A program made the position numbers and the translations under genes. From the IMG/VR virus record IMGVR_UViG_3300040781_000350: a DNA stretch of 64,000 nt; one strand, given 5' to 3'. Below the pieces are notes generated by a model. It saw only the letters and a program-made list of their open reading frames with translations. It was not told the DNA's origin and ran no database searches. The stretch comes from a virus. Its lineage: Duplodnaviria > Heunggongvirae > Uroviricota > Caudoviricetes. Each line of letters starts with the position of its first letter. The first letter of the stretch is position 1. This document shows positions 9,660 through 33,175 of this stretch, piece by piece.

Positions 9660-9866
9660 CTAGATCGTTTCAATTTCCTGTACGACTTGTTGCTGAACCT
9701 TCTTGATTAGATCTTGTTTATCATTTGTGGTATTAATTTGTAGTTGCAAGTAAAAATGATCTTGTTTACGGTGATCTACCGTAAACTTATCTTCCATCAA
9801 AGCATTCACATTTTTGACATGCACAAACCCTGTCTCTGAGATAGTTCTCCAATCAAATTTTCTCAT
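9660..9866 (-). CDS. hypothetical small protein (68 aa)
   Basis: Starts MRKFDW with ATGA overlap to the thyA stop. The longer 91-aa version in the ORF track would overlap thyA by 73 nt. Confidence 0.4.
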   Translation of the reverse strand: MRKFDWRTISETGFVHVKNVNALMEDKFTVDHRKQDHFYLQLQINTTNDKQDLIKKVQQQVVQEIETI

Positions 9867-10762
9867 ACTGCAACCTCCGCCTTGATTGTACCCTGATGAT
9901 TGTAATCGACGAGCTTCGAGTCTGAAAACTCCCAATCAAATACACTTGTAAAATTATCTGTCTGAAGCGTAGGCAACGCAAGCGGGCTACGTGACAGCTG
10001 TTCTCTTGCTTGTTCCACATGGTTCTCATACAGGTGTAAATCAGCTAGTGAACCACTTAGAACACCTGGTTTGAGACCTGCTTCTTTTGCTAGCAAATCT
10101 AGTAGCAAAGCATACGATGCAAGATTGAATGGTACCCCAAGGAATGTATCACAACTGCGCTGCGTCCAAACAAGGTCGAGATATTCACCACGCTTCATAA
10201 CTTGCCAAGAAAAATGACACCATGCAAGTGCTGTATGATCTAGACCGAGAGGATTCCAAGCAGTACAGACCATTCGACGACATTCAGGATTGTTATGAAG
10301 TCGATAAACAATACTTTTTAATTGGTCAACACTTTGATGACCTTCATTACCGTAATGTCTTGCAGATGGATCATGAAAATCTCTCCAACTAGCTCCATAA
10401 ATACATGGACCGAGATCGTCTTCGGCTTTCATTTTAGCTTTAGTTTCATCATCGTTACCATATAGTACTTTATCTGGGTTACACCATTCATCCCAAATCT
10501 TACATCCACGATCTTGAAACCATTTCTTAGATGTAACACCTTTAATGAACCCCTCGAGCTCAACCGCCATTGTTTTAAATGCAAGACGTTTTGTTGTAAG
10601 TGCCGGAAATCCTAAACTCATATCATGTTGAATCATACGAGGTGGGATTTTATAAGTAGCTACACCGGTACGGTTTTGCTGAATGACATCTGTATCAAGA
10701 AGGTCTTGAAGAATTTGTAGGTATTGTGTTTCTGCGTTCATATTAATCTTTAAAGTGTTCAC
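9863..10762 (-). CDS. thyA: thymidylate synthase
   Basis: 299 aa with canonical ThyA sequence throughout, including the active-site region LAWCHFSWQVM and the C-terminal DYNHQGTIKAEVAV. It is uninterrupted, with no intron, unlike T4 td. Confidence 0.9.
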   Translation of the reverse strand: MNTLKINMNAETQYLQILQDLLDTDVIQQNRTGVATYKIPPRMIQHDMSLGFPALTTKRLAFKTMAVELEGFIKGVTSKKWFQDRGCKIWDEWCNPDKVLYGNDDETKAKMKAEDDLGPCIYGASWRDFHDPSARHYGNEGHQSVDQLKSIVYRLHNNPECRRMVCTAWNPLGLDHTALAWCHFSWQVMKRGEYLDLVWTQRSCDTFLGVPFNLASYALLLDLLAKEAGLKPGVLSGSLADLHLYENHVEQAREQLSRSPLALPTLQTDNFTSVFDWEFSDSKLVDYNHQGTIKAEVAV

Positions 10763-11210
10763 GTACGGTATTTTCCATAATCTGCTTTAGCTGACTATCG
10801 ATATTGAACCGTTTGCTGTTGATATCCAAACTGGTGCGGATATTACCGTTTTTATTTCGTTGCGTAGCTGCTTTCCAGTCTGCAAGCATCTCGAGCAAAT
10901 CGAGGAGTGTCATGTCATTAACACCATTCTCCCAGTGTTCAGGGTGGTGCCGGTTCTTTGCATAGTGGTTGTCAATAGCAGGTTGTACCTGCTTGAGAAG
11001 CTCATCATACTCAGGAGAACCATATTCTGTCTTAGCTAGTTCAGGAGTCTTTTCAGCAAAGATTGCTAGCTCCGGATCAACAAACTTACTATCATCATGC
11101 TTTTGACCACGATCAATCAGATCATGTACAAACAAATTCAGATTCATTTGTACTTGACGGACATGTTTATGCGTCTCGTTCAGACAGTTTAATGTTTTAT
11201 TATTGCTCAT
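10743..11210 (-). CDS. hypothetical protein, possible HD-domain phosphohydrolase
   Basis: 155 aa. H..H…HD…D spacing (HKHVRQV…FVHDLIDRGQKHDDSKF) resembles the HD metal-binding motif. Confidence 0.35.
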   Translation of the reverse strand: MSNNKTLNCLNETHKHVRQVQMNLNLFVHDLIDRGQKHDDSKFVDPELAIFAEKTPELAKTEYGSPEYDELLKQVQPAIDNHYAKNRHHPEHWENGVNDMTLLDLLEMLADWKAATQRNKNGNIRTSLDINSKRFNIDSQLKQIMENTVREHFKD

Positions 11211-12815: not shown

Positions 12816-12833
12816 ATATTGTATTACAGTTCC
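12816..12833 (-). promoter_or_regulatory. conserved early-type promoter-like element (variant), DNA ligase
   Basis: Copy of the conserved early-type promoter-like element, reading tatattgtattacagttcc. It ends 8 nt before the ligase ATG and overlaps the stop of the RlmN-like gene. Confidence 0.5.
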
Positions 12834-13768
12834 TTTGGTGCATGGACTTTTTCTAATCCATGACCTTTTGTCTTTTTAATTTTGTCTTTGTTTTTGTTCA
12901 TCCAGTCTTGAACATACCAAAGTTGACCGCATCCACCGCCAATATCATCTTGACCGGCTGGATTGAAAACACGGACGTTGTAACCTGCTTGTAACATCTT
13001 GGATGAAAAATCTTGTGCTAACTTCCGTTGCCGTTCATTTGCTGTGGCAATATTTTCATCGCGTTCACAAATAACTGATATTGTTGACTGCCAGATTGAC
13101 GGATCGAAATGTTTGACTAATCGATCAACATCTTCCTGTGAATCATTTTTATCATGAACACAATAATTAAAGAATGGTTTTCTACCACAAGCTTTATACC
13201 ATTCAACACCGGTTTCAGAAATCTGTTTTAGCGTCATTGTAGGGCTTGGAATTAACTTCTTTCTAGCTTCATCTGTCGATTCATGAACTGAAAACTGTAA
13301 CCCGATGGTTTGGATCCATTTAGAGATTTTATTCAACTCCTCGAAAGCTTTTATTCCGCCGATTGGAGCTGATGTTGAAATCAGAAGTGAAGCTGTAGGA
13401 TACATTGCATAAAGCGTACCGAGTGCTTTTGATAACTCATTAAAATTCAACATTGGTTCACCCATTGACATAAACATGATTTGCAGCTTATCGATATCAT
13501 TCGGATTACAATCGATCTCATTTTCCAACAAGTGTATTGATTGTGATGCAATCTCTTCACCTGTGAACGATCTTACGAAGTAGTCACCGGCGCCACAAAA
13601 CCGACACCCTACCGGACAACCAGATTGTGTAGAACAACAGATAACTGTTCGATCTTTGTATGTCGGATACTTATACAATACCGATTCTGCAACACCATTG
13701 TCCTGAGTGTAAACATACTTGTTTACATTTTCATCACTAGATGTTATTTTTTTAATATTATCCCACAT
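12824..13768 (-). CDS. RlmN/Cfr-family radical SAM RNA methyltransferase-like protein
   Basis: 314 aa. CCSTQSGCPVGCRFCGAG matches the RlmN signature S-Q-x-G-C-x3-C-x-F-C (radical SAM CX3CX2C). LQFSVHESTDEARKKLIP resembles RlmN ALSLHAPNDELR. C-terminal GGGCGQL matches the RlmN catalytic-Cys motif ACGQL. It lacks the N-terminal accessory domain of bacterial RlmN. Confidence 0.75.
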   Translation of the reverse strand: MWDNIKKITSSDENVNKYVYTQDNGVAESVLYKYPTYKDRTVICCSTQSGCPVGCRFCGAGDYFVRSFTGEEIASQSIHLLENEIDCNPNDIDKLQIMFMSMGEPMLNFNELSKALGTLYAMYPTASLLISTSAPIGGIKAFEELNKISKWIQTIGLQFSVHESTDEARKKLIPSPTMTLKQISETGVEWYKACGRKPFFNYCVHDKNDSQEDVDRLVKHFDPSIWQSTISVICERDENIATANERQRKLAQDFSSKMLQAGYNVRVFNPAGQDDIGGGCGQLWYVQDWMNKNKDKIKKTKGHGLEKVHAPKEL

Positions 13769-13780: not shown

Positions 13781-14365
13781 TTACAGTTCCAAAATCTTTT
13801 TCGATGTCGGTACCCAATCAGGATCAGTTTTCAACTTCATTGAGACTTTACGAAACAAATCAGCTGTTGAACCTTGCATTGTTGTTGGTACCGTATCTTG
13901 AACGGTCGAAAGACCAAAACTCTCAATCACACTAATGTAAGGTTTCTGTTCACCTTTCCAGTTCGTTGTAACACCAGCAACTCGTACTGCTGGAAATTCA
14001 CGGCCTATCCAATCATTACGAATATGTGGCTGAACAACAATTGCTGTTCGCATGTATAGTGAGCTGCCGCATCGACCAGGGTAGGATATAATTTGTCCTC
14101 GTTCAATCGGTTTACTGTATAAATCTGTAATATTATTAATAATTGCTTTTTTTGTTAAAAATTCTACTGCTTCTTCCATTGTTAGAACCTTTGCATTTTT
14201 ACCTTTTGGTCTTTGCATTGATTCAATTTTTTCTTGTTCGTTATTATAAAGACATCCTGAGCAAGTCCAACCCCCGAACATGCCGGGAGGGCATGAACCT
14301 CTTCCCTTCGAACATTTTTCAATGTTACCCTCCCGGCAGATACCACCTTGGTGTAAATAAACCAT
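13781..14365 (-). CDS. hypothetical protein with N-terminal Cys-rich (zinc-ribbon-like) region
   Basis: 194 aa, with C-x5-C…C-x…C-x2-C at the N-terminus. Confidence 0.5.
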   Translation of the reverse strand: MVYLHQGGICREGNIEKCSKGRGSCPPGMFGGWTCSGCLYNNEQEKIESMQRPKGKNAKVLTMEEAVEFLTKKAIINNITDLYSKPIERGQIISYPGRCGSSLYMRTAIVVQPHIRNDWIGREFPAVRVAGVTTNWKGEQKPYISVIESFGLSTVQDTVPTTMQGSTADLFRKVSMKLKTDPDWVPTSKKILEL

Positions 14366-14671
14366 TTACATAAACCAAGTTATAACCCAACCAAAAAGCA
14401 ATGCAAAAGCAGGCTTTAATACAGCAACCACAATACTAAAAATTATCTTTTCTTCTGACGTACGAGTATCTTCCGGTTCGTTACCGGAATAACCTTTAGT
14501 TAGATAATTTATAATTATCGCAATTCCGACTGCTACCGGGATTGTTAATGATGCAATACCAAATGTAGAAACGATAAACCATTCCCATAAGATGGTTAAT
14601 GCGTATCCGCTCCAGATTATACCGAGCGGTGTAATTAGTAATGCAATTACTGCTAGTGCTATTGTTTTCAT
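14366..14671 (-). CDS. small membrane protein (101 aa)
   Basis: Two or three hydrophobic helices. Confidence 0.5.
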   Translation of the reverse strand: MKTIALAVIALLITPLGIIWSGYALTILWEWFIVSTFGIASLTIPVAVGIAIIINYLTKGYSGNEPEDTRTSEEKIIFSIVVAVLKPAFALLFGWVITWFM

Positions 14672-14680: not shown

Positions 14681-15412
14681 TTATTGCTTTGTAGTGGGCA
14701 TTAACCACATGTTATTGTTTGAGAAAACTTGCTCCTTGATCATGCTGTAGTATTCAAGCCGTGACAAGGTCAACATAGTATCAGCCTTGAAACACTTGAA
14801 CAATTCCTCACGGATACGCTCTTGTGAAACGTTCTTTAGACCACTTACGAACTCCATGTAGATCATGCAGCGATGAATATCCTGATGTAGGTTGAATCCC
14901 TTGGTGATTGAAAACCTGAAGTAGCGTAACATACGAAGGTAATCTTCCTTGATTCGATCTTCAGCATTTCCAACTGCACGGATAAGCTTCATATTAAGGT
15001 CATCCACCCCATGAAAAGGATCGATAATAGTACCATCAGCAAGATCAATAGCAATTGCATTTACAGTTGCGTCACGACGAGCAAGGTCATCTTCGATACA
15101 ATCAGCAATGTGGGTTACATCAGGCCGACGACCATCACTGTATTCACCATCCTTACGAGCAAGAGCAACATCAACTGCACCGAGTCCAGGAATGTTGCAT
15201 CGTAGAGTCAAAAACCCTTCAGTTGCAAGAAAGACCTCACCACCGATATCTTCAACAGCCTTCACCATGTCAGCAAAGGTAGGAGCTACCATACACAAAT
15301 CCAAGTCCTTAGGCTTGCTATTTGCGTCGATCAACTTATCACGTACCCACCCACCAACGATGTACGTTGGGAAGGGTAGCTTAATGTTAGGAATGTCTAA
15401 TACTGCTTGCAT
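14681..15412 (-). CDS. cca: tRNA nucleotidyltransferase (CCA-adding enzyme) / poly(A) polymerase family, head domain
   Basis: 243 aa. Signature GGxVRD (IVGGWVRDKLI) with DLDL catalytic carboxylates shortly after, then an RRD motif (DDLARRDATVNAIA). Confidence 0.8.
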   Translation of the reverse strand: MQAVLDIPNIKLPFPTYIVGGWVRDKLIDANSKPKDLDLCMVAPTFADMVKAVEDIGGEVFLATEGFLTLRCNIPGLGAVDVALARKDGEYSDGRRPDVTHIADCIEDDLARRDATVNAIAIDLADGTIIDPFHGVDDLNMKLIRAVGNAEDRIKEDYLRMLRYFRFSITKGFNLHQDIHRCMIYMEFVSGLKNVSQERIREELFKCFKADTMLTLSRLEYYSMIKEQVFSNNNMWLMPTTKQ

Positions 15413-15433
15413 ATGGTAATTATATGATTGTTC

Positions 15434-15805
15434 CTATCCGAAATACGGTTCGCTTTTTTTACTGAAAGGGTGCATTGCATCCCAATGTTTTTTATATGCT
15501 TCAGGATCTTTTTTCTTCATACGTTCTACTTCTTCAGCATATCGCTTCAACGGACGATTTGCAATCTCATTGAATTCATCCTGTGTAATGTTATTGAGAT
15601 TGATTTCAATATTTCGTAACTCAGGGCATCCAGTCTGCTCACCGCCAAACCGACGCTGTTCAGCACCTTCAGGGCTGAGATCGATCCCGTATTTGCAGTC
15701 ACATGTTGAAGGTTCTTTTTCGAACATCATACCGTCATAACTACATTTCGTGCGGCGAAGCAGATGGATGTATTTTCTGAGTGTTTCTATGTCTGTTGTA
15801 AACAT
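15434..15805 (-). CDS. hypothetical protein (124 aa)
   Basis: Start moved to MFTTDIE (15805). The upstream residues in the ORF track are the in-frame translation of the promoter element. Confidence 0.45.
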   Translation of the reverse strand: MFTTDIETLRKYIHLLRRTKCSYDGMMFEKEPSTCDCKYGIDLSPEGAEQRRFGGEQTGCPELRNIEINLNNITQDEFNEIANRPLKRYAEEVERMKKKDPEAYKKHWDAMHPFSKKSEPYFG

Positions 15806-15809
15806 AATA

Positions 15810-16493
15810 TTATAGCGGATTCTGAGTATCCTTACCGTGATGATCTGGAGCACTTCCATTTTGCTTATCCATGAACTTTCTCAGATCAGCAAAGTTGATC
15901 GGGTAATCATTCTCTTCAACGCTAACTTCGTAGCACTTCATCTTGGAATTCTTGTAAAGACGTCCGAGTTCAGACTTAACGAGAGTTCCATGAACATGAC
16001 TGTAAAGCATGTAAGACCCTCCGCCTTGACCATTCCAACTCAACACTGGGTAATGACTCAAGCACACAGCTTGACCATTGACAAATGCTTCGAAGTAGTT
16101 TGGAGTAAACACAACTTGCTTACCCCCGAGATCGAGAACATTTTCATCAACACCGCTAAAGCTTTGATGCCAACCCGCATAGTGATTACCAGCAGGTAGG
16201 TAAAGAGTCTTGAAGCTCAATCGGTTCAGCAATTCTTCGAATGCTTCCTTCCCACCTGCGCCGAACATAGTATCACCAAGTAGGAAACCAACAGTATTCT
16301 CATTAGCTACTTCGTTCCAACGTTGGATCAAAGTCTCTCTATGATCAAGAACGGAATCAAATCCGCGCATCTTCCATAGCGGTACCTTCCACTTTGGATC
16401 ATGATTAGCATGCAAGCATCCCCAGAACAGAACTTCCTTAGGATCTGCCTTAACCTTAACTGGCTTGTAAAATAAATCTTTTAAATTCGACAT
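15810..16493 (-). CDS. calcineurin-like metallophosphoesterase (putative)
   Basis: 227 aa. GCLHANHD, GDTMFG and AGNHYAG resemble phosphoesterase motifs I-III. Start set at MSNLKDL (16493), directly after a promoter element at 16497-16515. Confidence 0.5.
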   Translation of the reverse strand: MSNLKDLFYKPVKVKADPKEVLFWGCLHANHDPKWKVPLWKMRGFDSVLDHRETLIQRWNEVANENTVGFLLGDTMFGAGGKEAFEELLNRLSFKTLYLPAGNHYAGWHQSFSGVDENVLDLGGKQVVFTPNYFEAFVNGQAVCLSHYPVLSWNGQGGGSYMLYSHVHGTLVKSELGRLYKNSKMKCYEVSVEENDYPINFADLRKFMDKQNGSAPDHHGKDTQNPL

Positions 16494-16500
16494 ATGCGTA

Positions 16501-16941
16501 TTATAAATGTGTTCCTGTTGCAAGTTGAACATAAAATGGTACAAGAGCAATAAGCGTTACTGCGTGAATAAGCTGATCGATTCCAATTGTATTCCAAAAT
16601 GCTTTATATTGATCACGTTGCCAGAATCGAGCTGTAAGTCTACTTGTACACCAATCTGTTGCAAAATGTGTTACAAAAATATAAAAATATATTAACATAT
16701 GAAACGAAAATGATCCCCAAAATCCCATATTAGGCAGCTCTGTTACAAAGCAAAGCGGCATCAAGATAAAAAGAAAAATCATCATGAATACAGTCCCTGT
16801 ATAAATCGTAACGTGATCTAACATAACCCTGTTATCTGAGATTTTTTGTGTACCTATTTTTCTACTCTGAAGTAGAAAATCTCCGATATAATGCCCACTA
16901 AGTAAGACAGCTATAAAATAAATTGTAATATATTCAATCAT
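16501..16941 (-). CDS. small membrane protein
   Basis: Hydrophobic 147-160 aa protein. Start tentatively at MIEYITIY (16941), which has the GGAG Shine-Dalgarno-like sequence (GGAGAAGATT) 7 nt upstream. Alternative starts up to 16983. Confidence 0.4.
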   Translation of the reverse strand: MIEYITIYFIAVLLSGHYIGDFLLQSRKIGTQKISDNRVMLDHVTIYTGTVFMMIFLFILMPLCFVTELPNMGFWGSFSFHMLIYFYIFVTHFATDWCTSRLTARFWQRDQYKAFWNTIGIDQLIHAVTLIALVPFYVQLATGTHL

Positions 16942-17069
16942 AATCTTCTCCAATTCCAACTGTTCGATGTGCATATCTCTCACCGCAAGAATATTCAGCG
17001 AGCTCTGAACTGCATAGAGATAATGTTCCGTCCTTCACTCTCTGAAAAAACAGATCGATCTCTAATTCC

Positions 17070-17906
17070 TCAATCATGGTCTTCGAGATCGATGTAAATT
17101 TTGTCGTTGAACCATGACCAATCTTGTTTAAAGACTGGCGTCTCGTTATCAATGTACCATTTTGTTCTGACAGGTACCTCACCGATTTTAATATCTGGAT
17201 GCATATCAGGAAATGCTACTGTTTCAAATTTCTTATAACAAGACGAACCATGCTGTTTGGTAACTGGTAGTTCATACCAATCAGCGTCATCATCTTCATT
17301 TGACATTAACATCTCTTTAAGCTTAGCTGTATTCTTACCTTGTAACTCTTTATGTGAGTAATAAGCTCGAGCTTGCATCTGAACACTGTTTTTTGCAGCA
17401 TCTTGCATTCTCCACCACAAGCAGTTTAAAACTTCATAACGTTGTGATAGTGGAAACACACGAGCATCGAATTGAGCTTGTTTCATTACCATTGCATCAG
17501 CTACAGCAGTTTCATCTAACTGATTACCATAATCAGGTGTTATAGCACGAACCATTCGCAACTGATTAAACTTACTTGTTGCAAGACTTGCAGCAACACT
17601 TGTGATCTTTTGGATGTTTCCGCCAAACCAGATATCAGCTTCACGGCTCATCAGGTCAGTAAACACGATTGTGATATCATCTGATTGTGTATAACCAAAC
17701 TGCGCACCCTGGATATTCTCACAAAGAAACTTCATCGTCTCTTGCATATCTTCGATCATACCTTCATCGAATGGTCGATCCAACCCTTTTGTATAGGTAT
17801 GAAATGCTTTACCATCGATGCGTAGCACGTAATATTGTTTTGGTGAAAGATATGTACGAGTGATATTCTCGTAACCTTTCATGCGATCTCCTAATTCATC
17901 ACTCAT
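17070..17906 (-). CDS. tRNA-His guanylyltransferase (Thg1)-like 3'-5' nucleotide polymerase
   Basis: 278 aa. YYVLRIDGKAFH matches the Thg1 motif RIDGRxFH. GYTQSDDITIVF matches the Thg1 catalytic motif GQSDEYSF. Confidence 0.75.
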   Translation of the reverse strand: MSDELGDRMKGYENITRTYLSPKQYYVLRIDGKAFHTYTKGLDRPFDEGMIEDMQETMKFLCENIQGAQFGYTQSDDITIVFTDLMSREADIWFGGNIQKITSVAASLATSKFNQLRMVRAITPDYGNQLDETAVADAMVMKQAQFDARVFPLSQRYEVLNCLWWRMQDAAKNSVQMQARAYYSHKELQGKNTAKLKEMLMSNEDDDADWYELPVTKQHGSSCYKKFETVAFPDMHPDIKIGEVPVRTKWYIDNETPVFKQDWSWFNDKIYIDLEDHD

Positions 17907-17912
17907 GTTGTT

Positions 17913-17932
17913 ATAATATCGTTGTTCCTATT
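17913..17932 (-). promoter_or_regulatory. conserved early-type promoter-like element (variant), Thg1-like gene
   Basis: Copy of the conserved early-type promoter-like element, reading ttataatatcgttgttcc, 6 nt from the ATG. Confidence 0.5.
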
Positions 17933-18069
17933 TTACCAACAAAACCATCCGCCGCATTTATTACATTTAACACCACCACGTGGTTGTGCTTGGATATCAT
18001 GATCACATTCTGTATCAGCATCCCAAAGTTCATCTAATTCTGAGACGTTTTCTTTTATTTCATCACCCA

Positions 18070-18486
18070 TTACAGCTTAATGTTATTGAGGATCTTCTCC
18101 TTTTGCTTTGCAACTACCTCAGCAGGTACCCCATGTACGTTTTCACTCCCATGCAAGTTCTGAACAACATAGCTCACAACTACATAACCATGCTTTTCAG
18201 CAAGTTCGATATACGGCTTACGTTCTTTACCTGTTGTATTGGTGTTGTCAACAATGATACATGCAGTTCTTTTCAACATATTCAGCTCGACCTGATCTTT
18301 GCACCAAGCATGAGCTTGGCCGAGTTTACTCGGATCGAAATCATAACCATCACCCCAGAATAAATCAGCACTACATATTTCACAATCTGGGTGCAAAGTT
18401 TCGATGAACTTGCTAAAGGTAGACTTACCGCTGCCTGACGCTCCGACAGGCAGGATAAGTACTTTGTTTTGAATTAATGGATTCAT
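18070..18486 (-). CDS. P-loop polynucleotide kinase-like protein (kinase domain only)
   Basis: 138 aa. Walker A GASGSGKST at the N-terminus, as in the T4 Pnk kinase domain. Context of RNA ligases and phosphoesterases. Confidence 0.6.
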   Translation of the reverse strand: MNPLIQNKVLILPVGASGSGKSTFSKFIETLHPDCEICSADLFWGDGYDFDPSKLGQAHAWCKDQVELNMLKRTACIIVDNTNTTGKERKPYIELAEKHGYVVVSYVVQNLHGSENVHGVPAEVVAKQKEKILNNIKL

Positions 18487-18509
18487 ATAGCTATTATGTT
18501 AATGTTCCT

Positions 18510-18710
18510 TTACTTGCTTACTCGCTCACGAATTTCTGCAAGAGAATGCTCGATCAAAAGCTCCATAAGGTCATCAGAACTTTGAATCCTAGCTTCAATA
18601 ACCTCTGTTGGCTCGTTATGGTAAATTGCTCCGGCAGCAACATGTACCTCACCACCACTGAATACATGGCGATTGAAATTAATATGCTTGTTTTTTTCTA
18701 GTTTAATCAT
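18510..18710 (-). CDS. hypothetical protein (66 aa)
   Basis: ORF in an operon. Confidence 0.4.
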   Translation of the reverse strand: MIKLEKNKHINFNRHVFSGGEVHVAAGAIYHNEPTEVIEARIQSSDDLMELLIEHSLAEIRERVSK

Positions 18711-18721
18711 AATTGTTTTGT

Positions 18722-18928
18722 CTATTTAAATTGTGTATCCATGTTGATATTAAACGAACGGAAAACATAGTATAGTGATCCGATGTAAAATATCACCCAA
18801 GTACTCCATGTTGCAAAAACGAAACTATTCCAAGGTAGTTCATATATCACACCTGTAGACCACAGGGTAGCAAAAAACATCAATATGGAAATGAATTTAT
18901 GTTTATGTTTTAAAAATCGTCGTATCAT
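18722..18928 (-). CDS. small membrane protein (68 aa)
   Basis: Two hydrophobic helices. Promoter element at 18934-18952. Confidence 0.4.
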   Translation of the reverse strand: MIRRFLKHKHKFISILMFFATLWSTGVIYELPWNSFVFATWSTWVIFYIGSLYYVFRSFNINMDTQFK

Positions 18929-18932
18929 ATGT

Positions 18933-19715
18933 TTATATTACTGTTGTTCCTTTTTTACATCTACCTTTGAACCACCCGTTTGGTATTTCAGTTTTGGTTA
19001 AATCAACTTGTTTCATTGTTACACCATTGGTAATCCAATTTGTTCCTTTCTTCGCTTCACTCATTCTTTTTCTTGTACTAGTCTTTTTTGCAATACCTTT
19101 CTGTTTTATGCTTATTTTACGTTTAACATCATCAGGACGCTGTTTACCATAATGACCATTATTCGCGCCTTTATTTTTACCTTTCATGCTTTGTGAGATT
19201 TTTCTACAATGATCTTTAGAAAATTTCTTGCCTTTGTTAGTACCGGTTCGACCAATATTTGTTTCACTTATTCTTTTTTTATGTCTTTCAGTCATTCCTC
19301 TCACCCAACCTTCAGGTATATTTTTCAGTTTACACCATTTTTCATTATTACCATCGTTTATTAATACTAAACCATCACGTGCATGTTTCATACTTTCTCG
19401 CCATCGAACCCTGTAATACTCAAACATTCTTGATGATGTAATACGACCTACACCGTTAATACCAGTTTTAAAAAAAGATAAAGCGGATAGAGCTCTTAAC
19501 ATTTTATAATACTCAACAGAGCCTTTTATTTGCATTTTTACTAGTAGTAAATGCGCAATAAAATGTTCTCTCGGAGATAATAAAACTATATTACTATGTT
19601 TATTATCTCCACCAATACTTTTTGGTATAATATGATGTCTTTCAGCATGGCATGATGTTGATGGATCTGATTTGCGTTTTTTGACAAGTGATTTGTAAAC
19701 AGTATGATAATTCAT
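18933..19715 (-). mobile_element. HNH homing endonuclease with C-terminal NUMOD3-like DNA-binding repeats
   Basis: 260 aa. HNH motif HHIIPKSIGGDNKHSNIVLLSPREHFIAH. Four C-terminal repeats of the pattern [KR]xISxxxKG (RHKKRISETNIG, HCRKISQSMKGK, VKRKISIKQKG, TRKRMSEAKKG). Inserted between the kinase and the RNA ligase genes. Confidence 0.85.
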
Positions 19716-19729
19716 ACTATTATTTATAT

Positions 19730-20740
19730 TCAGCTTTCGGTATACTGGTAATTGATCGTTTTGAAGCTTAGATCTTTGTTAAGTCGTTCACTATAAAGAT
19801 GATTGCGAAGTCTCCATACAAGCCCTTCAGCAGTTGCACCATTAGCATACTTCACTTTCTTCGCTTCTTCGACAAGATCATCAGCTGTTTCCCATTTGAA
19901 TGGACCTTCATAGTAAAGATCAACCATAGGAATACCAAGCGTAGTGCAGATTTGAACTGATTCATTCCAGTCGCAAAGAATACGACGATCAAGCTTCCAA
20001 ACATTGAACACCCGGGCGTCAACACCTTTAAGCTTTTCTGGATTCTTTTGAATACCTTCACCTACAAGCTCCAACTGGAGACCAATACCCACAGGTAGCT
20101 TCTCTTTAAGGTTGTACTTGAATACAGGTTGCCAATATTTGCTGTTTCCTGATTCTTTGATTTCGAGATTACGAGAGCAAACTTTGAAACCGTCTTCGGC
20201 ATGATTAACGATAGTTACAGAACTACCATCATGCTTAACAGTTGCAACAACATCTCGCCCTTTCATCATTTCGATAATATCAGGCATATTCTCAAGACGT
20301 TCTTCATCGGTCTTTGGTACAAGATGTGTCGGAAACGACCCAGCTACGTCACCACTTTCATACGATACAGGTTTTTCGTATTTCTCAACACCGAGATATT
20401 CACCCACATCAGTATCAATCAAATCATTCGGGTCGACATCATAATAGCTTGCTGGGAGATATTTCATAAGCTCACCAAGAGGCATAATTAGTCCATTGCT
20501 GTATTCACCACGAAGCTTGATAATATTAATCCTGAACTTCTTATTTTCTAGGAAGCTGAATTCTGGTTTATCTTTCGGCGCAATAGTATCGACCGGGATA
20601 TAAACGACGAGATCATCCACTTTGAAATCAACTGCGCTAATTACACGCCAGCTGAGACCATACATCTTAAAGATGGTGAGTGAATCTGCATTTGGATGCT
20701 CAATAACATCCGAGATTTTTTGTATTGTTGCTAGTTTCAT
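19730..20740 (-). CDS. RNA ligase (nucleotidyltransferase motif KHDGSS) with N-terminal OB/tRNA-binding-like domain
   Basis: 336 aa. N-terminal IEHPNADSL resembles the tRNA-binding OB domain (HPDADKL). Motif I KHDGSS sits mid-protein, an architecture like DraRnl/NgrRnl (Rnl5-type). Confidence 0.6.
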   Translation of the reverse strand: MKLATIQKISDVIEHPNADSLTIFKMYGLSWRVISAVDFKVDDLVVYIPVDTIAPKDKPEFSFLENKKFRINIIKLRGEYSNGLIMPLGELMKYLPASYYDVDPNDLIDTDVGEYLGVEKYEKPVSYESGDVAGSFPTHLVPKTDEERLENMPDIIEMMKGRDVVATVKHDGSSVTIVNHAEDGFKVCSRNLEIKESGNSKYWQPVFKYNLKEKLPVGIGLQLELVGEGIQKNPEKLKGVDARVFNVWKLDRRILCDWNESVQICTTLGIPMVDLYYEGPFKWETADDLVEEAKKVKYANGATAEGLVWRLRNHLYSERLNKDLSFKTINYQYTES

Positions 20741-20749
20741 ATTATATTT

Positions 20750-21091
20750 TTATTTTTGTTTCTTGTAGTTAACAAAGTCTCTACGTAAAACATTTCCAGT
20801 TTTTTGAAAATTTCTGATGAACATTAAGTTGTAGTTTTTTAGACTCTTCTGTTTATCGTAATACCCGAATACCTTTGCATTAAATTTTACAACATCACCT
20901 GAACGGAATTTAAAGCCAGCAGGTGCAGTGATCCAAACATGATCTGCAACATCAATATCTTTATGTATCACGTCTTTAATCAAAAGATAATGACCACCGA
21001 TCTTGCGTGGATTAATTGTTTGTATAGTTGCAGTTACTTCGATCAATTGACCTTTGAACTGCTCCATTGCTTCTCTGAATTTACTTTTCAT
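20750..21091 (-). CDS. hypothetical protein (113 aa)
   Basis: ORF overlapping the Rnl1 stop by 11 nt. Confidence 0.45.
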   Translation of the reverse strand: MKSKFREAMEQFKGQLIEVTATIQTINPRKIGGHYLLIKDVIHKDIDVADHVWITAPAGFKFRSGDVVKFNAKVFGYYDKQKSLKNYNLMFIRNFQKTGNVLRRDFVNYKKQK

Positions 21092-22178
21092 CCAATACTG
21101 ATTTGATTATTTTTTTGATTGTTTGGTTTGGTATTTCCATTCCTTTACGTTTCTTAAATGCAACATCTTTCCATGGATTTCTGTACGTCATTTGCATTAA
21201 GAACGCAAAATCCTTATCCGAAAGATTTTTGTGCATTTGTGCATATTCATCGATTTTGTTGATTGAAACATCAACAGATTTTTTAACTTCATCTAGATTT
21301 TGAACAAGTTCCTCAACCATGCACCAGCATTCATAATCAAATGTGTTTTTGATATATTTTTTAAATGCTTTGAATGATGGAAAATCCTGATCAGCATAAA
21401 GATTAAGAATATTCTTTTCAGTTGCATTTGATTTAAACGAATGTAACTTGAGATACTCTGCTGATTTTACTTTCCATAAATCATTACCTTGGTATATGAC
21501 ACAACCTTCAATACCAGATGCTTTTTCGATCGTAGATAGAAGTTCGCTCAGGTCATTGAACTCATATTTCTTCGGACGTGGCACAAGCATCTCCATTGCA
21601 AATGAATCAAGCATTACCTGAGATTCTAGCTCGTATGTATTCTTGTTAATTGCTCCGATCAGATACAAATCGATTTCGGGGTAGTCCAAAACAATCCGCT
21701 GATTAGGTGTTACAATTTCGAAAAGTAATGATAAATGAGTATGGTTCTGCATCCAAGGACGGATGTTATAGTACTTGTCAAGAGCAACATCGAAATCAGC
21801 GCTATTGTCTAAAGTAACGTAGCTTTCAGTACCTCTGGTACGAACGTTGAACATGTTCTCACATGCATCGACAATCATTAACGAGCCATCCTCTTTAGAT
21901 ACAATTCTCGAATCTAACAGATCAGTTGGAGGCGGAAAGTTACCAGGGTTTTCACCAAAATTAACGAACTTAGGAAAGCCGCAGCTTAAGGGCTGAAAAT
22001 CTGACTTACGGTAAATAAGTGAGCGTAAAAATTTATTTTCCTGCGTCCATTCGACACTAGGCAGACCTGGAGTAATTAAACATGCCTCATCGCCAAAGAA
22101 TGTAATATCTCTTTGTATAAATTCCTCGATTGGTACACTTTTGAGTGCAGCCTCTACGCGTTTTTGTGCTAAGTTCAT
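21081..22178 (-). CDS. rnlA: RNA ligase 1 (T4 RnlA-like)
   Basis: 365 aa against 374 aa for T4 Rnl1. KFVNFGENP vs T4 KFFNLNENP. Motif I IVSKEDGSLM vs T4 ILTKEDGSLV. LLFEIVTPNQRIVLDY vs T4 ANFEFVAPTNRIVLAY. IEGCVIYQGNDLWKVKSAEYLKLHSFKS vs T4 [29 protein letters not shown]. Confidence 0.9.
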   Translation of the reverse strand: MNLAQKRVEAALKSVPIEEFIQRDITFFGDEACLITPGLPSVEWTQENKFLRSLIYRKSDFQPLSCGFPKFVNFGENPGNFPPPTDLLDSRIVSKEDGSLMIVDACENMFNVRTRGTESYVTLDNSADFDVALDKYYNIRPWMQNHTHLSLLFEIVTPNQRIVLDYPEIDLYLIGAINKNTYELESQVMLDSFAMEMLVPRPKKYEFNDLSELLSTIEKASGIEGCVIYQGNDLWKVKSAEYLKLHSFKSNATEKNILNLYADQDFPSFKAFKKYIKNTFDYECWCMVEELVQNLDEVKKSVDVSINKIDEYAQMHKNLSDKDFAFLMQMTYRNPWKDVAFKKRKGMEIPNQTIKKIIKSVLDEK

Positions 22179-22468
22179 ACTAACTCCAAGCTATAATTTG
22201 CTCCCCGTTTATTGAATTTGAACACCCCTTTAACAACCCCGTTAACCATATGCGGTACAACCTTTTCAAACTCTGCTAATCTGAATGTGTATACAGTTCC
22301 ACGAACACCAACATGTTTAAATTTGAAGTTACATGCTGATCGACCTCGATTTGCTCCCACAAATTCAAGCTCAGCTGGAAAGGGTCCAGGAATCTCAAGC
22401 ATTTCATACCCGCCATAACTTTCATAGGTTAAGTATTCGTTTTTTTCTTTGTTGTATGGTACTTTCAT
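22175..22468 (-). CDS. hypothetical protein (97 aa)
   Basis: ATGA overlap with the rnlA start. Confidence 0.45.
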   Translation of the reverse strand: MKVPYNKEKNEYLTYESYGGYEMLEIPGPFPAELEFVGANRGRSACNFKFKHVGVRGTVYTFRLAEFEKVVPHMVNGVVKGVFKFNKRGANYSLELV

Positions 22469-22469
22469 A

Positions 22470-22802
22470 TTATTTTTTTCTAATTGGAATTAATGGTACT
22501 GGTGATGCTTTACAATCACATGAGAAATCTTTTGTTTTGTCAAATTCTTTTTTACAAACCGTACATTGCCAAATGTTCCAATGTATTTTGCGTTCGTATT
22601 TTTCTTCTAATAATGCCTCTGATGGCCACTTTGGTGGATCAACTTGACTTTTTGGTGGAATATAACTACCTGTTCGAACAGGTTCATTATGACAATCGCA
22701 TGGACATTTATGATTTTTACGAATCTTTACAAATATCCACAAAGCTATCGGCAATAAAGCAACAGCAATTGGACTACAACTTGAACATGCTAAAACGATC
22801 AT
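22470..22802 (-). CDS. hypothetical Cys-rich (zinc-finger-like) membrane-anchored protein
   Basis: 110 aa with an N-terminal hydrophobic segment and CxC / CxxC clusters. Confidence 0.45.
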   Translation of the reverse strand: MIVLACSSCSPIAVALLPIALWIFVKIRKNHKCPCDCHNEPVRTGSYIPPKSQVDPPKWPSEALLEEKYERKIHWNIWQCTVCKKEFDKTKDFSCDCKASPVPLIPIRKK

Positions 22803-23011
22803 ACTTCTTTAAATTCAATTTCAAATGTTGCAAGGCTATATTTTTCACCCGGTAAATTGCGACGAATGTTTACTAAATCATATTCAGCTTCCTCTTTATC
22901 TGATTTGAGATGTTTAAGCGGAACGGTTGGTGAAAAATATCCTCCCATTCGATGCGAGCAATAGTAAAACCCATCACAATCACGTTTGATGCAATACTGT
23001 TTAATAATCAT
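22799..23011 (-). CDS. hypothetical protein (70 aa)
   Basis: Promoter element at 23016-23034. Confidence 0.4.
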   Translation of the reverse strand: MIIKQYCIKRDCDGFYYCSHRMGGYFSPTVPLKHLKSDKEEAEYDLVNIRRNLPGEKYSLATFEIEFKEV

Positions 23012-23035
23012 ACAGCAATAATAATGATGTTCCTT

Positions 23036-23845
23036 TTATTGGAATTGTGTGTCGTGACTTAAAAAATGTTGTGTAATAACACCATTTTGTATAATTGCAT
23101 AGCTCATTTGCATACAGTCAATACAGTAGTTTTTTAAACCAATCCCATTTTTCTTTTCTCGTTTGATTTTACTGTTAATTGTAGTATGACCAACAACTTG
23201 TCTTACTTCATCAAGGGGCACGAATTCATAATTCCAATCAAGCCAAACAGGGCTCCCAACATCGCTCAGACCCATCCGACATGCACCGACATCCCATATC
23301 CAATGACCAGCTTCAAACATAAAATGATGTTTTGTTTTATCCCAGTCATCACTCAAACGTTGGATATTATCCAGTTCGCTCATGAATGGTTTAAAATGTG
23401 ATGTGTGAAATCCTGCATGTGAAACAACAATATCATCACCGATTTGTGTACAAAGCTTTAGCGATTCAACCCATTTTGGATCGATATCCTTATTAAAAGT
23501 TTTTGCTTTACTTTTTGACCAACCAGAGCAAAAATAGTCTGAATTTGATTTAGTGTTGATATAGTTTTTATTATATGATGCTAAGTATGCAACATCATGA
23601 TTACCAACATGCCAAATAGCGCGATCACCAAATTCTTCAAACCGTTCTCTGATCCATTCACATGTTGCACCAACACCATATATAATTGCTCCGTCTGGTG
23701 TTCTGAATGTATCGAAATAGTCACCGTTAAAGATTACAATCTCCCAATCACGTTCAGCTTCTAATACGAGGTCAGCAAAGCCACCAATGTTTTGGTGTAT
23801 GTCCGGAATTACTAGTACTTTTGTTTCTTTTGATATTTTTCTCAT
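23036..23845 (-). CDS. calcineurin-like metallophosphoesterase
   Basis: 269 aa with clear motifs: VIPDIHQN (DxH), FNGDYFDTF (GDxxD), HVGNHDVAY (GNHD). Last gene of the RNA-repair module. Confidence 0.7.
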   Translation of the reverse strand: MRKISKETKVLVIPDIHQNIGGFADLVLEAERDWEIVIFNGDYFDTFRTPDGAIIYGVGATCEWIRERFEEFGDRAIWHVGNHDVAYLASYNKNYINTKSNSDYFCSGWSKSKAKTFNKDIDPKWVESLKLCTQIGDDIVVSHAGFHTSHFKPFMSELDNIQRLSDDWDKTKHHFMFEAGHWIWDVGACRMGLSDVGSPVWLDWNYEFVPLDEVRQVVGHTTINSKIKREKKNGIGLKNYCIDCMQMSYAIIQNGVITQHFLSHDTQFQ

Positions 23846-33083: not shown

Positions 33084-33175
33084 ATGCTACAAAGGCAATG
33101 CTAATACCGACTCCTACAATGAAGCCAAACCAAAAAGATCCGTTAAATATCCATTGTGATATTGTAATTTCCATC

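Follow-up and report, generated by a model that had tools for sequence, protein, structure and literature searches.

Which substrate would be methylated by the RlmN/Cfr-like radical SAM enzyme that a tailed phage carries at 12824..13768 of the window, the whole 64,000-nt stretch of viral DNA analysed here? The preliminary description had called the gene an RlmN/Cfr-type radical SAM methyltransferase lacking the N-terminal accessory domain, and had offered A37 of tRNAs or A2503 of 23S rRNA as its target. The open reading frame is real: it was the dominant one of that interval, and ran from an ATG start on the minus strand to give a protein of 314 aa. An exact copy of this protein (P0001) was present on metagenomic contigs. 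The following features were mapped.

12824..13768, minus strand: gene of a stand-alone, 314-aa radical SAM methyltransferase of class-A RlmN/Cfr type, short-form NAD-linked clade (from ORF, HMM, PDB and fold)
13643..13675, minus strand: codons of residues 32-42 (YKYPTYKDRTV), a clade-specific insertion and pocket wall (from alignment)
13637..13639, minus strand: codon of C44, equivalent of E. coli RlmN C118 and Cfr C105 (from alignment)
13595..13618, minus strand: codons of C51-x3-C55-x2-C58, the radical SAM [4Fe-4S] motif CPVGCRFC (from sequence)
12956..12967, minus strand: codons of the loop F268-N269-P270-A271 (from alignment, with residue roles from the Cfr literature)
12920..12940, minus strand: codons of G277-G-G-C280-G-Q-L283 (from sequence and alignment)
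12827..12913, minus strand: codons of the C-terminal tail, residues 286-314 (from family consensus and model)

Class-A enzymes are recognized by a methyl-carrying cysteine in a C-terminal xxCGQL loop and by a resolving cysteine seven residues before the cluster motif. In the window protein residues 44-58 were C-C-S-T-Q-S-G-C-P-V-G-C-R-F-C, in which Q-x-G-C-P-V-G-C-R-F-C was exactly as first described, while the beginning read earlier as S-Q-x-G-C is actually S-T-Q-S-G-C. The C51/C55/C58 motif and the SAM-binding motifs were invariant in the phage clade, RlmN and Cfr alike. C44 takes the place of RlmN C118 and Cfr C105, the cysteine which resolves the covalent enzyme-substrate adduct. The C-terminal GGGCGQL was present at residues 277-283, a stretch belonging to the clade signature GQDDIGGGCGQLW, and the second cysteine sought there on alignment was found as C280, which aligned with the methyl-carrying E. 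coli RlmN C355 and Cfr C338. Both C44 and C280 were invariant in 46 of 46 family members.

In HMM searches TIGR00048 (RlmN) was the best family match (E 7.7e-26) and the Cfr models matched at E 4e-19 to 3.5e-21, with the next radical SAM families, KamA and EpmB, at E > 0.01. A better match to another radical SAM subfamily was looked for and none was found, QueE being negligible (E 0.02). The best sequence match in the PDB was Cfr (9p0p, E 2.9e-15), and RlmN was also among the best. The AlphaFold model (pLDDT 90.9) contained a confidently modelled radical SAM barrel resembling known radical SAM structures, and the fold search made with it returned seven RlmN chains (E 1e-13 to 1e-16, TM about 0.7), the next fold being SuiB at only E 7e-7. 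The Pfam score for PF04055 was 24.6, slightly below the gathering score of 29.5. With its two extra cysteines, and with RlmN/Cfr as the nearest relatives in both sequence and structure, the protein falls in the class-A RlmN/Cfr superfamily, and the original family call agreed with the HMM, PDB and fold searches alike. The window gene is confirmed as that of a radical SAM methyltransferase of RlmN/Cfr type in which the N-terminal domain that grips RNA is missing.

The profile search and tree placement suggested earlier had a divided outcome, since RlmN/Cfr was indeed the best family but the protein scored below the equivalog cut-offs and stood on a separate deep branch. The scores were 90.9 bits against 290 for TIGR00048 and 54.8 against 633 for PRK11194; for the Cfr family models (NF000424/TIGR04432) they were 75.9 against 530, 69.1 against 550 and 68.7 against 468 bits. 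In the distance tree the clade of the window protein formed its own deep branch and was not clustered with Cfr. Judged from these comparisons, the protein is an orthologue of neither RlmN nor Cfr, and it belongs to a separate third branch which is widespread and phage-centred. Thousands of metagenomic members were found, in phages of Proteobacteria, Actinobacteria, Bacteroidota, Firmicutes and Saccharibacteria, and also on bacterial chromosomes. The closest homologues from cultured phages were 46-57% identical, and no near-identical cultured phage was found for the window, whose DNA had no close match in a search of 50,697 phage records. Cultured carriers of the gene include Salmonella phage Arash, Stenotrophomonas phages ANB28 and BUCTxx99, Xanthomonas phage JGB6 and Aeromonas phage Ahp1. 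The best phage-family match was PHROG 24834 (unknown function, E 1.7e-14), and the PADLOC defence-system models gave no real match, only a spurious Cas8c (E 0.0024).

E. coli RlmN has 384 aa, exactly 70 more than the window protein, in keeping with the difference of about 70 aa estimated at first. The missing part is N-terminal, as had also been proposed: the profile match began at TIGR00048 position 72, and by alignment about 75 N-terminal residues of RlmN/Cfr, the HhH2 accessory domain, were without counterpart. In RlmN and Cfr this domain holds the H91/H92 junction of the rRNA, which corresponds to the acceptor stem and D-arm of tRNA, and an isolated anticodon stem-loop (17-mer) is not a substrate of RlmN, which requires the whole tRNA fold. 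An alternative N-terminal domain was considered in P0123, P0124 and P0126 and was rejected, since their extensions were mutually unrelated and matched no Pfam domain; wrongly assigned start sites are the probable cause. The C-terminal tail follows the family consensus VQDWMKxNPxLAKxSxGxGLPKVHTP, in which G302, H309 and P311 were invariant, and it is the lower-confidence part of the model (pLDDT 60-82). This tail is lysine-rich and could replace the lost RNA-binding element, a point against the NAD-pathway reading given below.

Ten active-site positions tell Cfr from RlmN (PMC12887959). At these positions the clade has an invariant set of its own, which matched RlmN only at R40 (R114 of RlmN), and the pocket residues Y32/Y34/Y37/R40/V42/L95/Q96/M98/F268/P270/A271 were invariant in the clade and unlike both RlmN and Cfr. 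Within the segment 32-42, Y32, Y34, Y37, R40 and V42 stand for I109/E111/R114/T116 of RlmN and M95/Y97/W101/S103 of Cfr; the residues of this segment were each invariant or nearly so among the 46 family members, and the same ones were found in bacterial orthologues from NAD operons. The RNA-contact arginines common to both enzymes were replaced, R206 of E. coli RlmN (R184 of Cfr) by A126 and R344 (R327 of Cfr) by F268. In RlmN, R206 binds G29 and R344 contacts the ribose, and the target nucleotide is contacted by the loop R344-K-T-R347, or R327-S-Q-F330 in Cfr. Among the RlmN contact residues, K345/T346/R347 were exchanged for N/D269-P270-A271, E111 for Y37 and T116 for V42. The aligned core of the clade was acidic (median pI 5.24, net charge -7), whereas the RlmN/Cfr cores had a median pI of 8.24 and a charge of +3; both measures are a crude proxy for pocket electrostatics.

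Residues whose mutation compromises or abolishes resistance in Cfr, namely Y97, W101, S103, S151, Q329 and F330 (PMC12887959), corresponded in the window protein to Y34 (a possible match), R40, V42, Q96, P270 and A271. An enzyme of Cfr type, methylating C8 of A2503 and making the infected cell resistant to antibiotics of the peptidyl-transferase centre, would agree with Cfr as the best PDB sequence match, with the cfr genes found at 27-30% identity by plasmid tblastn and with the alignment of Y34 to Y97. It is highly improbable, given scores of 69-76 bits against cut-offs of 468-550, the position in the tree, the absence of W101, S103, S151, Q329 and F330, and the loss of the domain anchoring H91/H92. 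Cfr-type resistance was rejected for the window protein by residues and scores, and the Cfr-like remodelling of A2503 first proposed is not supported, the Cfr cut-offs having failed and the resistance residues being absent except possibly Y34. No member of the clade was found on resistance plasmids by tblastn, where all matches (<33% identity) were true cfr or rlmN genes.

Another reading is that of a phage RlmN, making m2A37 on host or phage tRNAs and/or modifying A2503, either to support translation or to block anticodon nucleases, in which the N-terminal loss merely shifts the substrate range. All known relatives target A2503 or A37, TIGR00048 was the best HMM match, and R40 is the counterpart of RlmN R114. 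The surroundings could be read in the same way. The radical SAM gene abuts a DNA ligase gene, and genes for a CCA-adding enzyme, a Thg1-like protein, an AAA_33 kinase, two RNA ligases and phosphoesterases lie around it, with a thymidylate synthase gene also near. Over 140 related loci, tRNA genes occurred within 10 kb in 41 (29%), and the homologue of Stenotrophomonas phage ANB28 is located inside a tRNA array. Linkage to tRNA genes was not retained, since there was no consistent isoacceptor or position and no tRNA gene in the window, so it is a weak and non-specific signal. The neighbouring 194-aa and 101-aa proteins did not recur in related loci, so there is no obligate partner gene. As to the phage itself, earlier called T4-like, the window contained a gp20-type portal, a tail sheath stabiliser and a gp63-type RNA ligase, which bears the name out, but the portal was about 30% identical to those of cyanomyoviruses and T4-like vibriophages, and the relation is only distant.

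The neighbourhoods of the family pointed to NAD+ salvage. About 115 related loci were used, which are phylogenetically non-independent and were treated with crude ORF calling. Unbiased clustering of 3,591 neighbour proteins gave NAMPT and NMNAT-Nudix as the most frequent neighbour clusters, and the tight partners across the loci were NAMPT, NMNAT-Nudix, PncA, NrtR and Prs, in at least ten distinct gene orders. NAMPT, PncA or Prs lay within 10 kb of the radical SAM gene in 29 of 115 loci, and in 26 of the 82 groups that were left by dereplication at 80% identity. The nearest NAD gene was at most two genes away in 27 of the 32 NAD-positive loci against 7.3 expected, a value reached in none of 200,000 simulations. 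By the same within-locus control, RNA-repair genes were that near in 2 of 25 loci against 4.2 expected; their distance to the radical SAM gene was no smaller than that to a gene picked at random from the locus, and the idea of a tRNA-repair operon was dropped. Independent contig look-ups revealed NAD/ADP-ribose genes within 6 kb in four of four cases, the P0017 phage group has a NadR-like gene upstream, and genes for NADAR and a PARP-like ADP-ribosyltransferase were among the neighbours. Thus at the level of the family the clade is tightly linked or fused to NAD+ salvage genes.

The window differs in this respect, as its radical SAM gene has no adjoining NAD gene. No match to NAMPT, NMNAT, Nudix, PncA, Prs, NrtR, NADAR, PARP or NadR-like genes was found in its 64 kb, the sole match of the search being a DUF3307 homologue at 16552-16965. 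The tRNA-repair genes of the window are only regional neighbours of the radical SAM gene. The window protein was 51-69% identical to the NAD-linked orthologues, with an identical signature.

In bacteria the gene was found in NAD loci as well, and by alignment the proteins there were orthologues with the same signature residues. Ornithinimicrobium murale has the order pncA-[radical SAM]-nrtR with overlapping stops and starts, and an alphaproteobacterial MAG has nrtR-nudix-pncA-nadV-nadE-[radical SAM] beside AcrB. In Saccharibacteria chromosomes the gene lies on the opposite strand between pncB-pncA and nrtR-nadE, beside MetRS, with a putative Nudix-family gene upstream in the pncB-pncA group. 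Two bacterial phyla thus have the gene in co-directional runs with NAD genes, which overlap it in one of them, and in the third phylum a cluster of NAD genes flanks it.

These bacterial NAD operons argue against a phage RlmN, as do the scores far under the equivalog cut-off, the missing domain which reads the L-shape of a tRNA that RlmN needs whole, the replaced R206 and R344, the N/D-P-A loop, the acidic core and the RNA-repair genes without tight family-wide linkage. That reading is unlikely, and the protection of tRNAs from anticodon nucleases through m2A37 suggested at first found no backing in cut-offs, pocket, N-terminal domain, core charge or tRNA-repair linkage. RNA methylation by the window enzyme is no longer the best-supported reading, and the target is probably other than the ribosomal or tRNA adenosine proposed earlier.

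Three types of fusion were found, two of which are known from a single contig each. A radical SAM-Nudix fusion with an intact Nudix box lies directly upstream of NAMPT and NMNAT, inside their operon; a histidine phosphatase-radical SAM fusion was also found, and a radical SAM-HD phosphohydrolase fusion on two contigs. Such fusions to nucleotide hydrolases also count against the tRNA and A2503 roles proposed at first. Nudix enzymes also process RNA 5' caps, including removal of the NAD cap, so the Nudix fusion is still compatible with an RNA end as target. The methylated adenine could then belong to a nucleic acid linked to NAD or ADP-ribose, such as an NAD-capped RNA with its 5'-terminal adenosine or an RNA or DNA end carrying ADP-ribose, and descent from RNA-methylating enzymes would then agree with both the NAD context and the Nudix fusion. 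The frequent Nudix neighbours, the NADAR and PARP-like neighbours and the intermingling of NAD and RNA-repair genes within the same phage islands fit this view. We regard it as quite unlikely, since the pncA, pncB, nadE and nadV genes of the bacterial operons speak for salvage itself rather than for capped RNA, and free nucleotides are suggested by the fusions to histidine phosphatase and HD phosphohydrolase.

The NAD association could also come from co-location in accessory and counter-defence islands, together with chance in a few bacteria, with the target elsewhere (an adenine in phage DNA, some protein or a different metabolite). In phages the accessory genes do cluster in hypervariable islands, where Gad1, homing endonucleases and repair genes share regions with the radical SAM gene, and the window gene lies against a DNA ligase and near thymidylate synthase. 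NadV is carried by 22-33% of larger phages, so a part of the co-occurrence in phages is a background effect; genome-level co-occurrence with NadV was discounted for this reason, and weight was put on adjacency, bacterial operons and fusions. By the within-locus control, adjacency was much tighter than island sharing, and with the co-directional runs in two bacterial phyla (one with overlaps), the flanking cluster in a third and the physical Nudix fusion within a NAMPT-NMNAT operon, mere co-location becomes very unlikely.

The best explanation is a third class-A branch, coupled to NAD+ salvage, with a nucleotide of the NAD pathway as its most likely substrate and not A2503 or A37; this may well be so, though we hold it somewhat short of probable. 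The analysis itself shows the fold, the catalytic residues, the divergent pocket, the gene linkage and the fusions. We infer the methyl-transfer chemistry from homology and the coupling to NAD metabolism from gene context, while the nature of the substrate is speculative. The gene product would be an active stand-alone class-A radical SAM C-methyltransferase with the two-cysteine mechanism of RlmN/Cfr. A first SAM would methylate C280, and a second would be cleaved at the C51/C55/C58 [4Fe-4S] cluster to give the 5'-deoxyadenosyl radical, which would take a hydrogen from the S-methyl group of C280. This would leave a methylene radical, which would attack an electron-poor sp2 carbon in a ring of the substrate, and the covalent adduct so formed would be resolved by C44. 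The branch has lost the N-terminal domain reading RNA shape and the shared RNA-contact arginines, and gained an aromatic-rich invariant pocket on an acidic core. Its coupling would be to NAD+ salvage and reconstitution through NAMPT/NadV, NMNAT-Nudix, NadR-like, PncA/PncB/NadE, Prs and NrtR, so that the most likely substrate would be a free or protein-bound nucleotide of the NAD pathway. Candidate targets are adenine C2 or C8 of NAD+, NaAD or ADP-ribose, or the pyridine ring of a nicotinamide nucleotide. In phages the enzyme would be accessory to the module of NAD+ reconstitution that serves counter-defence. In the phage of the window the gene would have been separated from the NAD genes, and it lies in an RNA-repair/DNA-ligase region.

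It is possible, although on balance we doubt it, that this branch moved from RNA to a small molecule and C-methylates NAD+ or one of its precursors or breakdown products (NaAD, NMN, ADP-ribose, nicotinamide), forming a new step attached to bacterial NAD+ salvage and to the NAD+ reconstitution counter-defence of phages. A possible result of C-methylation is a dinucleotide or signal analogue which immune NADases and TIR enzymes could not use or which would inhibit them.

Several points count against a substrate from the NAD pathway. RNA is, to our knowledge, what all characterised members of the superfamily methylate, and small molecules are not known as substrates of any class-A radical SAM enzyme; nor do we know of an established biochemical reason for methylating a nucleotide of the NAD pathway. 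Class-A methylases work slowly and spend two SAM on each turnover, so a low-copy target fits better than millimolar NAD+. The lack of any NAD gene match in the 64 kb of the window, the R40 shared with RlmN, the tRNA-repair neighbours in the window, the tRNA-linked loci and the tRNA array of ANB28 are also on this side.

Only two class-A radical SAM methylases, RlmN and Cfr, have been characterised, and their targets lie in one adenosine context of RNA. If the NAD-pathway reading is true, class-A chemistry would reach a new class of substrate through the third branch, in which the pocket is rebuilt and the domain for docking RNA is missing. The coupling points to an unrecognised reaction in the phage-bacterium conflict over NAD+ depletion and reconstitution, itself among the most closely studied, and the gene may be a missing member of bacterial NrtR regulons.

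RlmN (YfgB of E. coli) is a dual-specificity methyltransferase producing m2A2503 in 23S rRNA and m2A37 in tRNA. The window protein shares with it the partial TIM-barrel radical SAM core with beta-extension, CX3CX2C, both cysteines, the SAM-binding motifs and R40 (R114), at 21-24% identity depending on the alignment. It differs from RlmN by an extra YPT insertion before the C118-equivalent cysteine, by SVICERDE in place of the RlmN motif NLIPWNP, by the absence of the HhH2 domain and by an acidic instead of a basic core. The genomic context differs too, E. coli rlmN lying between ndk and rodZ and the clade in NAD salvage modules. The JGI and RAST pipelines call members RlmN ('23S rRNA (adenine2503-C2)-methyltransferase') on an automated basis without experimental grounds, and other depositors have entered the gene as hypothetical, 'prohibitin family' or 'radical SAM protein, partial'.

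Cfr, Cfr(C) and Cfr(D) belong to the same superfamily, with the same mechanism and cysteines and with Y97 of Cfr aligned to Y34. Enzymes of this type methylate 23S rRNA to m8A2503 and give PhLOPSA resistance. At 25-29% identity to Cfr, the window protein is without the N-terminal domain and without the Cfr residues W101, S103, D150, S151, S153, Q329 and F330. Resistance-gene screens of viromes could take the clade for Cfr-like determinants, and neither the RlmN nor the Cfr label is justified.

For NARP2 (NadV/Nampt with NatV/Nmnat-Nudix) the comparison is one of gene context. No NAD gene is nearby in the window, and most NAMPT-encoding phages are without the radical SAM gene (1,933 NAMPT-like records against 13 with close homologues). 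Full-text literature searches and the papers on NARP1/2/3, aRES, jumbo phages and the survey of virus NAD-ADPr systems yielded no description of an RlmN-like enzyme that is phage-borne or linked to NAD, and a radical SAM or RlmN-like gene was not mentioned as a NARP component in the NARP papers or the survey of Iyer et al. NARP operons do gain accessory enzymes, such as the Macro-domain phosphatase Adpp (NARP1-AP), and a related system, NARP3, consists of NadR and PnuC. In many phages members of the radical SAM clade were likewise found beside, between or fused to the components of NARP2.

A 314-aa radical SAM protein (hereafter rSAM) was encoded by the minus-strand ORF 12824-13768, with C-C-S-T-Q-S-G-C-P-V-G-C-R-F-C at residues 44-58 and G-G-G-C-G-Q-L at residues 277-283. 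Its gene was part of a long co-directional run: it began 13 nt past the stop of the preceding 194-aa ORF, and its end fell at, or just within, the beginning of a gene for an ATP-dependent DNA ligase. In the family profile search TIGR00048 (RlmN, E 7.7e-26) and the Cfr models (4e-19 to 3.5e-21) were the only significant matches, the remaining radical SAM families all giving E > 0.01. Pfam gave only a sub-threshold match to the generic Radical_SAM family, and the PHROGs match was a family of unknown function. The best sequence matches among solved structures were Cfr (9p0p) and RlmN. Based on 46 family sequences, AlphaFold2 gave a confident model (pLDDT 90.9, pTM 0.90), for which Foldseek retrieved seven RlmN chains (E 1e-13 to 1e-16), while the next radical SAM enzyme reached only 7e-7. 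The protein was 70 residues shorter than E. coli RlmN, with the deficit at the N-terminus. Since family, structure and fold searches all led to RlmN/Cfr, the preliminary description of an RlmN/Cfr-type protein without its N-terminal part was confirmed. Neither of the outcomes named there as refuting it was seen: no other radical SAM subfamily matched better, and the C-terminal cysteine motif was present.

The phage protein and its relatives were aligned with E. coli rlmN, cfr, cfr(C), cfr(D) and one plasmid rlmN. The cluster cysteines C51/C55/C58, the adduct-resolving C44 (E. coli RlmN C118, Cfr C105), the methyl-carrying C280 of the C-terminal motif (RlmN C355, Cfr C338) and the SAM-binding motifs GEP, S-x-S and S-x-H were invariant in phage proteins, RlmN and Cfr. 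From these residues it is natural to infer that the window protein would use an active class-A mechanism, that of the two-cysteine RlmN/Cfr methylases, as in the Cfr cryo-EM paper. Three diverged short-form relatives (P0152, P0172 and P0249) kept the cluster motif, with Ser at the C44 position and Pro at the C280 position; since both mechanistic cysteines were lost, these cannot, judged by their sequences, be class-A methylases in the usual sense.

The HhH2 N-terminal domain of RlmN and Cfr was missing from the phage protein. Cfr bound to rRNA uses this domain to anchor the H91/H92 junction via backbone contacts (Cfr cryo-EM paper); when RlmN-tRNA is superposed, the counterpart of that junction is formed by the acceptor stem and D-arm. 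RlmN needs extended recognition: it acts poorly on chimeric tRNAs and does not methylate a 17-mer anticodon stem-loop on its own. Two RNA-contacting arginines were also replaced in the alignment: RlmN R206 (Cfr R184), which makes a bidentate contact to tRNA G29, by A126, and RlmN R344 (Cfr R327), which touches the ribose of A2503 (Cfr cryo-EM paper), by F268. For the aligned catalytic core of the clade the median pI was 5.24 and the net charge -7, against 8.24 and +3 in canonical RlmN/Cfr; the argument is an indirect one, as the pI of full-length E. coli RlmN is 6.6. The best-conserved segment across the three branches was the C-terminal loop, which in Cfr cradles the adenine through backbone atoms (Cfr cryo-EM paper).

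Every curated equivalog cut-off was missed, with bit scores of 90.9 against 290 for RlmN (about a third) and 69-76 against 468-550 for Cfr (less). Within 5 Å of the target base, Cfr and RlmN have different residues at ten positions, and in most cases resistance is lost when Cfr is given the RlmN residue (Fruci et al., PMC12887959). At these positions the phage clade carried Y32, Y34/Y37, R40, V42, L95, Q96, M98, N/D269, P270 and A271, all but N/D269 invariant or nearly so in 46 family members; R40 was the only one coinciding with RlmN (R114), and at most Y34 with Cfr (Y97). In a rough neighbour-joining distance tree of 83 representatives with midpoint rooting, full-length RlmN and Cfr clustered together among other short forms, while the window protein fell on another, deeply separated branch together with phage homologues (Stenotrophomonas, Xanthomonas-type, Salmonella, Vibrio and Aeromonas). 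The window protein is predicted not to be orthologous to RlmN or Cfr, and very probably belongs to a distinct branch of class-A methylases that is neither. The family comprised 5,588 matches at E <= 1e-5 (90% non-redundant set), with 75 representatives below 1e-30 at 50% clustering; the top 120 matches were all of about 310 aa and 63-100% identical to the window protein. The best match in the plasmid collection (32% identity) was a short-form relative, unannotated and located on a 267-kb element, the Subdoligranulum variabile 'plasmid' OY725877 (234075-234866), from another uncharacterised short-form clade.

The genes around rSAM in the window were as follows.

9863-10762, minus strand: thymidylate synthase, flanking rSAM on the DNA ligase side
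10743-11210, minus strand: DUF5662 protein (E 1e-35), overlapping the thymidylate synthase start
13781-14365, minus strand: 194-aa protein directly upstream of rSAM, with Cys-rich N-terminus and faint Zn-ribbon match
14366-14671, minus strand: 101-aa small membrane protein matching phrog_2169
14681-15412, minus strand: CCA-adding enzyme
15810-16550, minus strand: phosphoesterase
16552-16965, minus strand: DUF3307 homologue
17070-17906, minus strand: Thg1-like 3'-5' polymerase
18070-18486, minus strand: AAA_33 P-loop kinase, weakly labelled 'polynucleotide kinase' (E 3e-7), top match a generic ATPase PHROG
18933-19715, minus strand: homing endonuclease (phrog_655, E 6e-36), between the AAA_33 kinase and the Rnl2-like ligase
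19730-20740, minus strand: Rnl2-like RNA ligase
21081-22178, minus strand: gp63-type Rnl1 RNA ligase
23036-23845, minus strand: metallophosphatase

Thus rSAM was flanked on one side by DNA ligase, DUF5662 and thymidylate synthase, the latter two remaining paired on metagenomic copies of the window phage. Homologues of the 194-aa and 101-aa upstream proteins were absent from all 139 related loci. On the minus strand at 14681-23845 a dense suite for RNA end healing and sealing was present, including the Thg1-like enzyme, a type reported as only sporadic in phages, and the homologue in Stenotrophomonas phage ANB28 was located inside a tRNA array. Both seemed to favour a partnership with tRNA repair and the tRNA target (A37) proposed in the preliminary description; tRNA genes were absent from the whole 64-kb window. 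NAD genes were likewise absent from these 64 kb, the DUF3307 homologue being the only element shared with NAD-linked loci: its family adjoins a NadR-like gene just upstream of rSAM in the phage group of P0017, a relative of the window protein. Because of the weak label, and because an AAA_33 kinase lay two genes from NMNAT in a related phage, the window kinase might be a nucleoside or nicotinamide-riboside kinase instead of a polynucleotide kinase; no direct similarity between the two kinases was detected.

The tRNA-repair idea was tested across the family. ORFs were called, crudely, in 140 loci of viral contigs, reference genomes and cultured phages, each extending ±10 kb, and 3,591 neighbour proteins were clustered without prior labels before the most recurrent clusters were annotated. 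RNA enzymes did not head the list: NAMPT/NadV and NMNAT-Nudix (NatV/NadM) made up the top clusters, and next came NrtR, PncA, Prs-like, nucleoside deoxyribosyltransferase-like (NDT), NADAR, metallophosphatases, RtcB and DNA ligase. By iterated profile searches NAMPT, PncA or Prs lay within 10 kb in 29/115 loci (26/82 groups at 80% identity), and RNA-repair enzymes in 25/115. Since many large phages carry NadV (in a published survey, 22% of those of medium size and 33% of jumbo phages; NAMPT-like genes in 1,933 of 50,697 phage records here), co-occurrence was not relied on, and an internal adjacency control was used. Restricted to loci that carried the gene group in question (NAD or RNA repair), it compared how often the nearest member lay within two genes of rSAM and of any other gene of the locus. 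Among these phylogenetically related loci, NAD genes were that close to rSAM in 27/32 (7.3 expected; 0 of 200,000 simulations reached 27) and RNA-repair genes in 2/25 (4.2 expected). The RNA-repair neighbourhood is therefore regional co-location, the NAD linkage is specific, and the idea of a tRNA-repair partnership was rejected.

At least ten gene orders were found in phage contigs, including NatV-NAMPT-rSAM, NatV-rSAM-NAMPT, rSAM-NAMPT, rSAM-Prs-NAMPT and NatV-rSAM-NDT-NAMPT. Four further members (66-70% identical to the window protein) were looked up in an independent gene-position index, and NAD/ADP-ribose genes lay within 6 kb of rSAM in all four: a NadR-like NMNAT-kinase (P0017), NAMPT-Nudix-rSAM-x-PARP-like (P0094), Gad1-Prs-NADAR-NAMPT-...-rSAM (P0044) and Nudix-NAMPT-x-x-NDT-rSAM-...-Prs-NMNAT (P0066). 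P0017, P0066 and P0094 were among the nearest neighbours of the window protein in the tree. Some related rSAM loci (L150, 7551-9203; L152, 276-1208 and 2837-3331) carried a 550-aa PARP-type ADP-ribosyltransferase, anti-Gabija Gad1 and NADAR domains, and are thus counter-defence/ADP-ribose islands.

The linkage also occurred in bacteria. On an isolate chromosome of Ornithinimicrobium murale, pncA, rSAM and nrtR overlapped by 4 nt at each junction; an alphaproteobacterial MAG had nrtR-nudix-pncA-nadV-nadE-rSAM, then an HlyD/AcrB efflux pair. In Saccharibacteria contigs, which also carried MetRS, FtsX, TatD and a class-V aminotransferase, rSAM lay on the opposite strand between pncB-pncA (with a putative upstream Nudix-family gene) and nrtR-nadE. 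At 51-63% identity to the window protein, and with an identical pocket signature as well as its GQDDIGGGCGQLW and SVICERDE motifs, these bacterial proteins are its orthologues.

Three fusions were found. P0129 (45% identical, within the clade) carried a C-terminal Nudix domain with intact Nudix box, closest to that of NatV, and its gene abutted NAMPT and a stand-alone NMNAT; the Nudix usually fused to NMNAT is here fused to rSAM. P0072 (66% identical) was fused to a branch-1 histidine phosphatase, and the more distant short form P0196 to an HD/dGTPase-type phosphohydrolase. P0129 and P0072 came from one contig each, P0196 from two independent contigs. Each of the three partners belongs to the hydrolases that act on small phosphorylated nucleotides, with Nudix enzymes also able to act on RNA caps.

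The designation 'T4-like' held in a broad sense, given a gp20-type portal, tail sheath stabiliser and gp63-type RNA ligase, and failed in any closer sense, the portal sharing only about 30% identity with its counterparts in cyanomyoviruses and T4-like vibriophages. No near-identical DNA was found among 50,697 deposited phage records, and the identical protein occurred on metagenomic contigs up to 221 kb. G+C was 0.41-0.44 at 32001-46000 and 0.34-0.40 in the rest of the window, so that block may be of different origin or expression class.

Full-text literature searches, and papers on NARP1/2/3 (phage NAD+ reconstitution pathways), aRES, jumbo phages, viral tRNA modification and a survey of viral NAD-ADPr genes, yielded no account of an RlmN-like enzyme from phages or with a link to NAD. 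Database labels were automatic only: 'RlmN' (JGI, RAST) and elsewhere 'hypothetical', 'prohibitin family' or 'radical SAM protein, partial'. The linkage of rSAM with NAD genes appears unreported, and the observation is directly testable.

Functional coupling of rSAM to NAD+/ADP-ribose metabolism is likely. That its substrate is a free NAD-pathway nucleotide is a more tentative proposal, and to our knowledge all known relatives are RNA enzymes. With the adenine-cradling loop best conserved, the simplest guess would be an adenine-containing dinucleotide or ADP-ribose; the pyridinium ring would also make chemical sense as a radical acceptor. The slowness of class-A methylases speaks against bulk NAD+. 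In the overall and most economical reading, which we hold at a little under even chances, the branch would have retained class-A chemistry, dispensed with the parts that dock large folded RNAs and gained a new pocket, strongly conserved, for a substrate linked to NAD+ salvage. In phages rSAM would then be an accessory to NARP2-type NAD+ reconstitution (NadV/Nampt with NatV/Nmnat-Nudix), similar to the Macro-domain phosphatase that extends NARP1.
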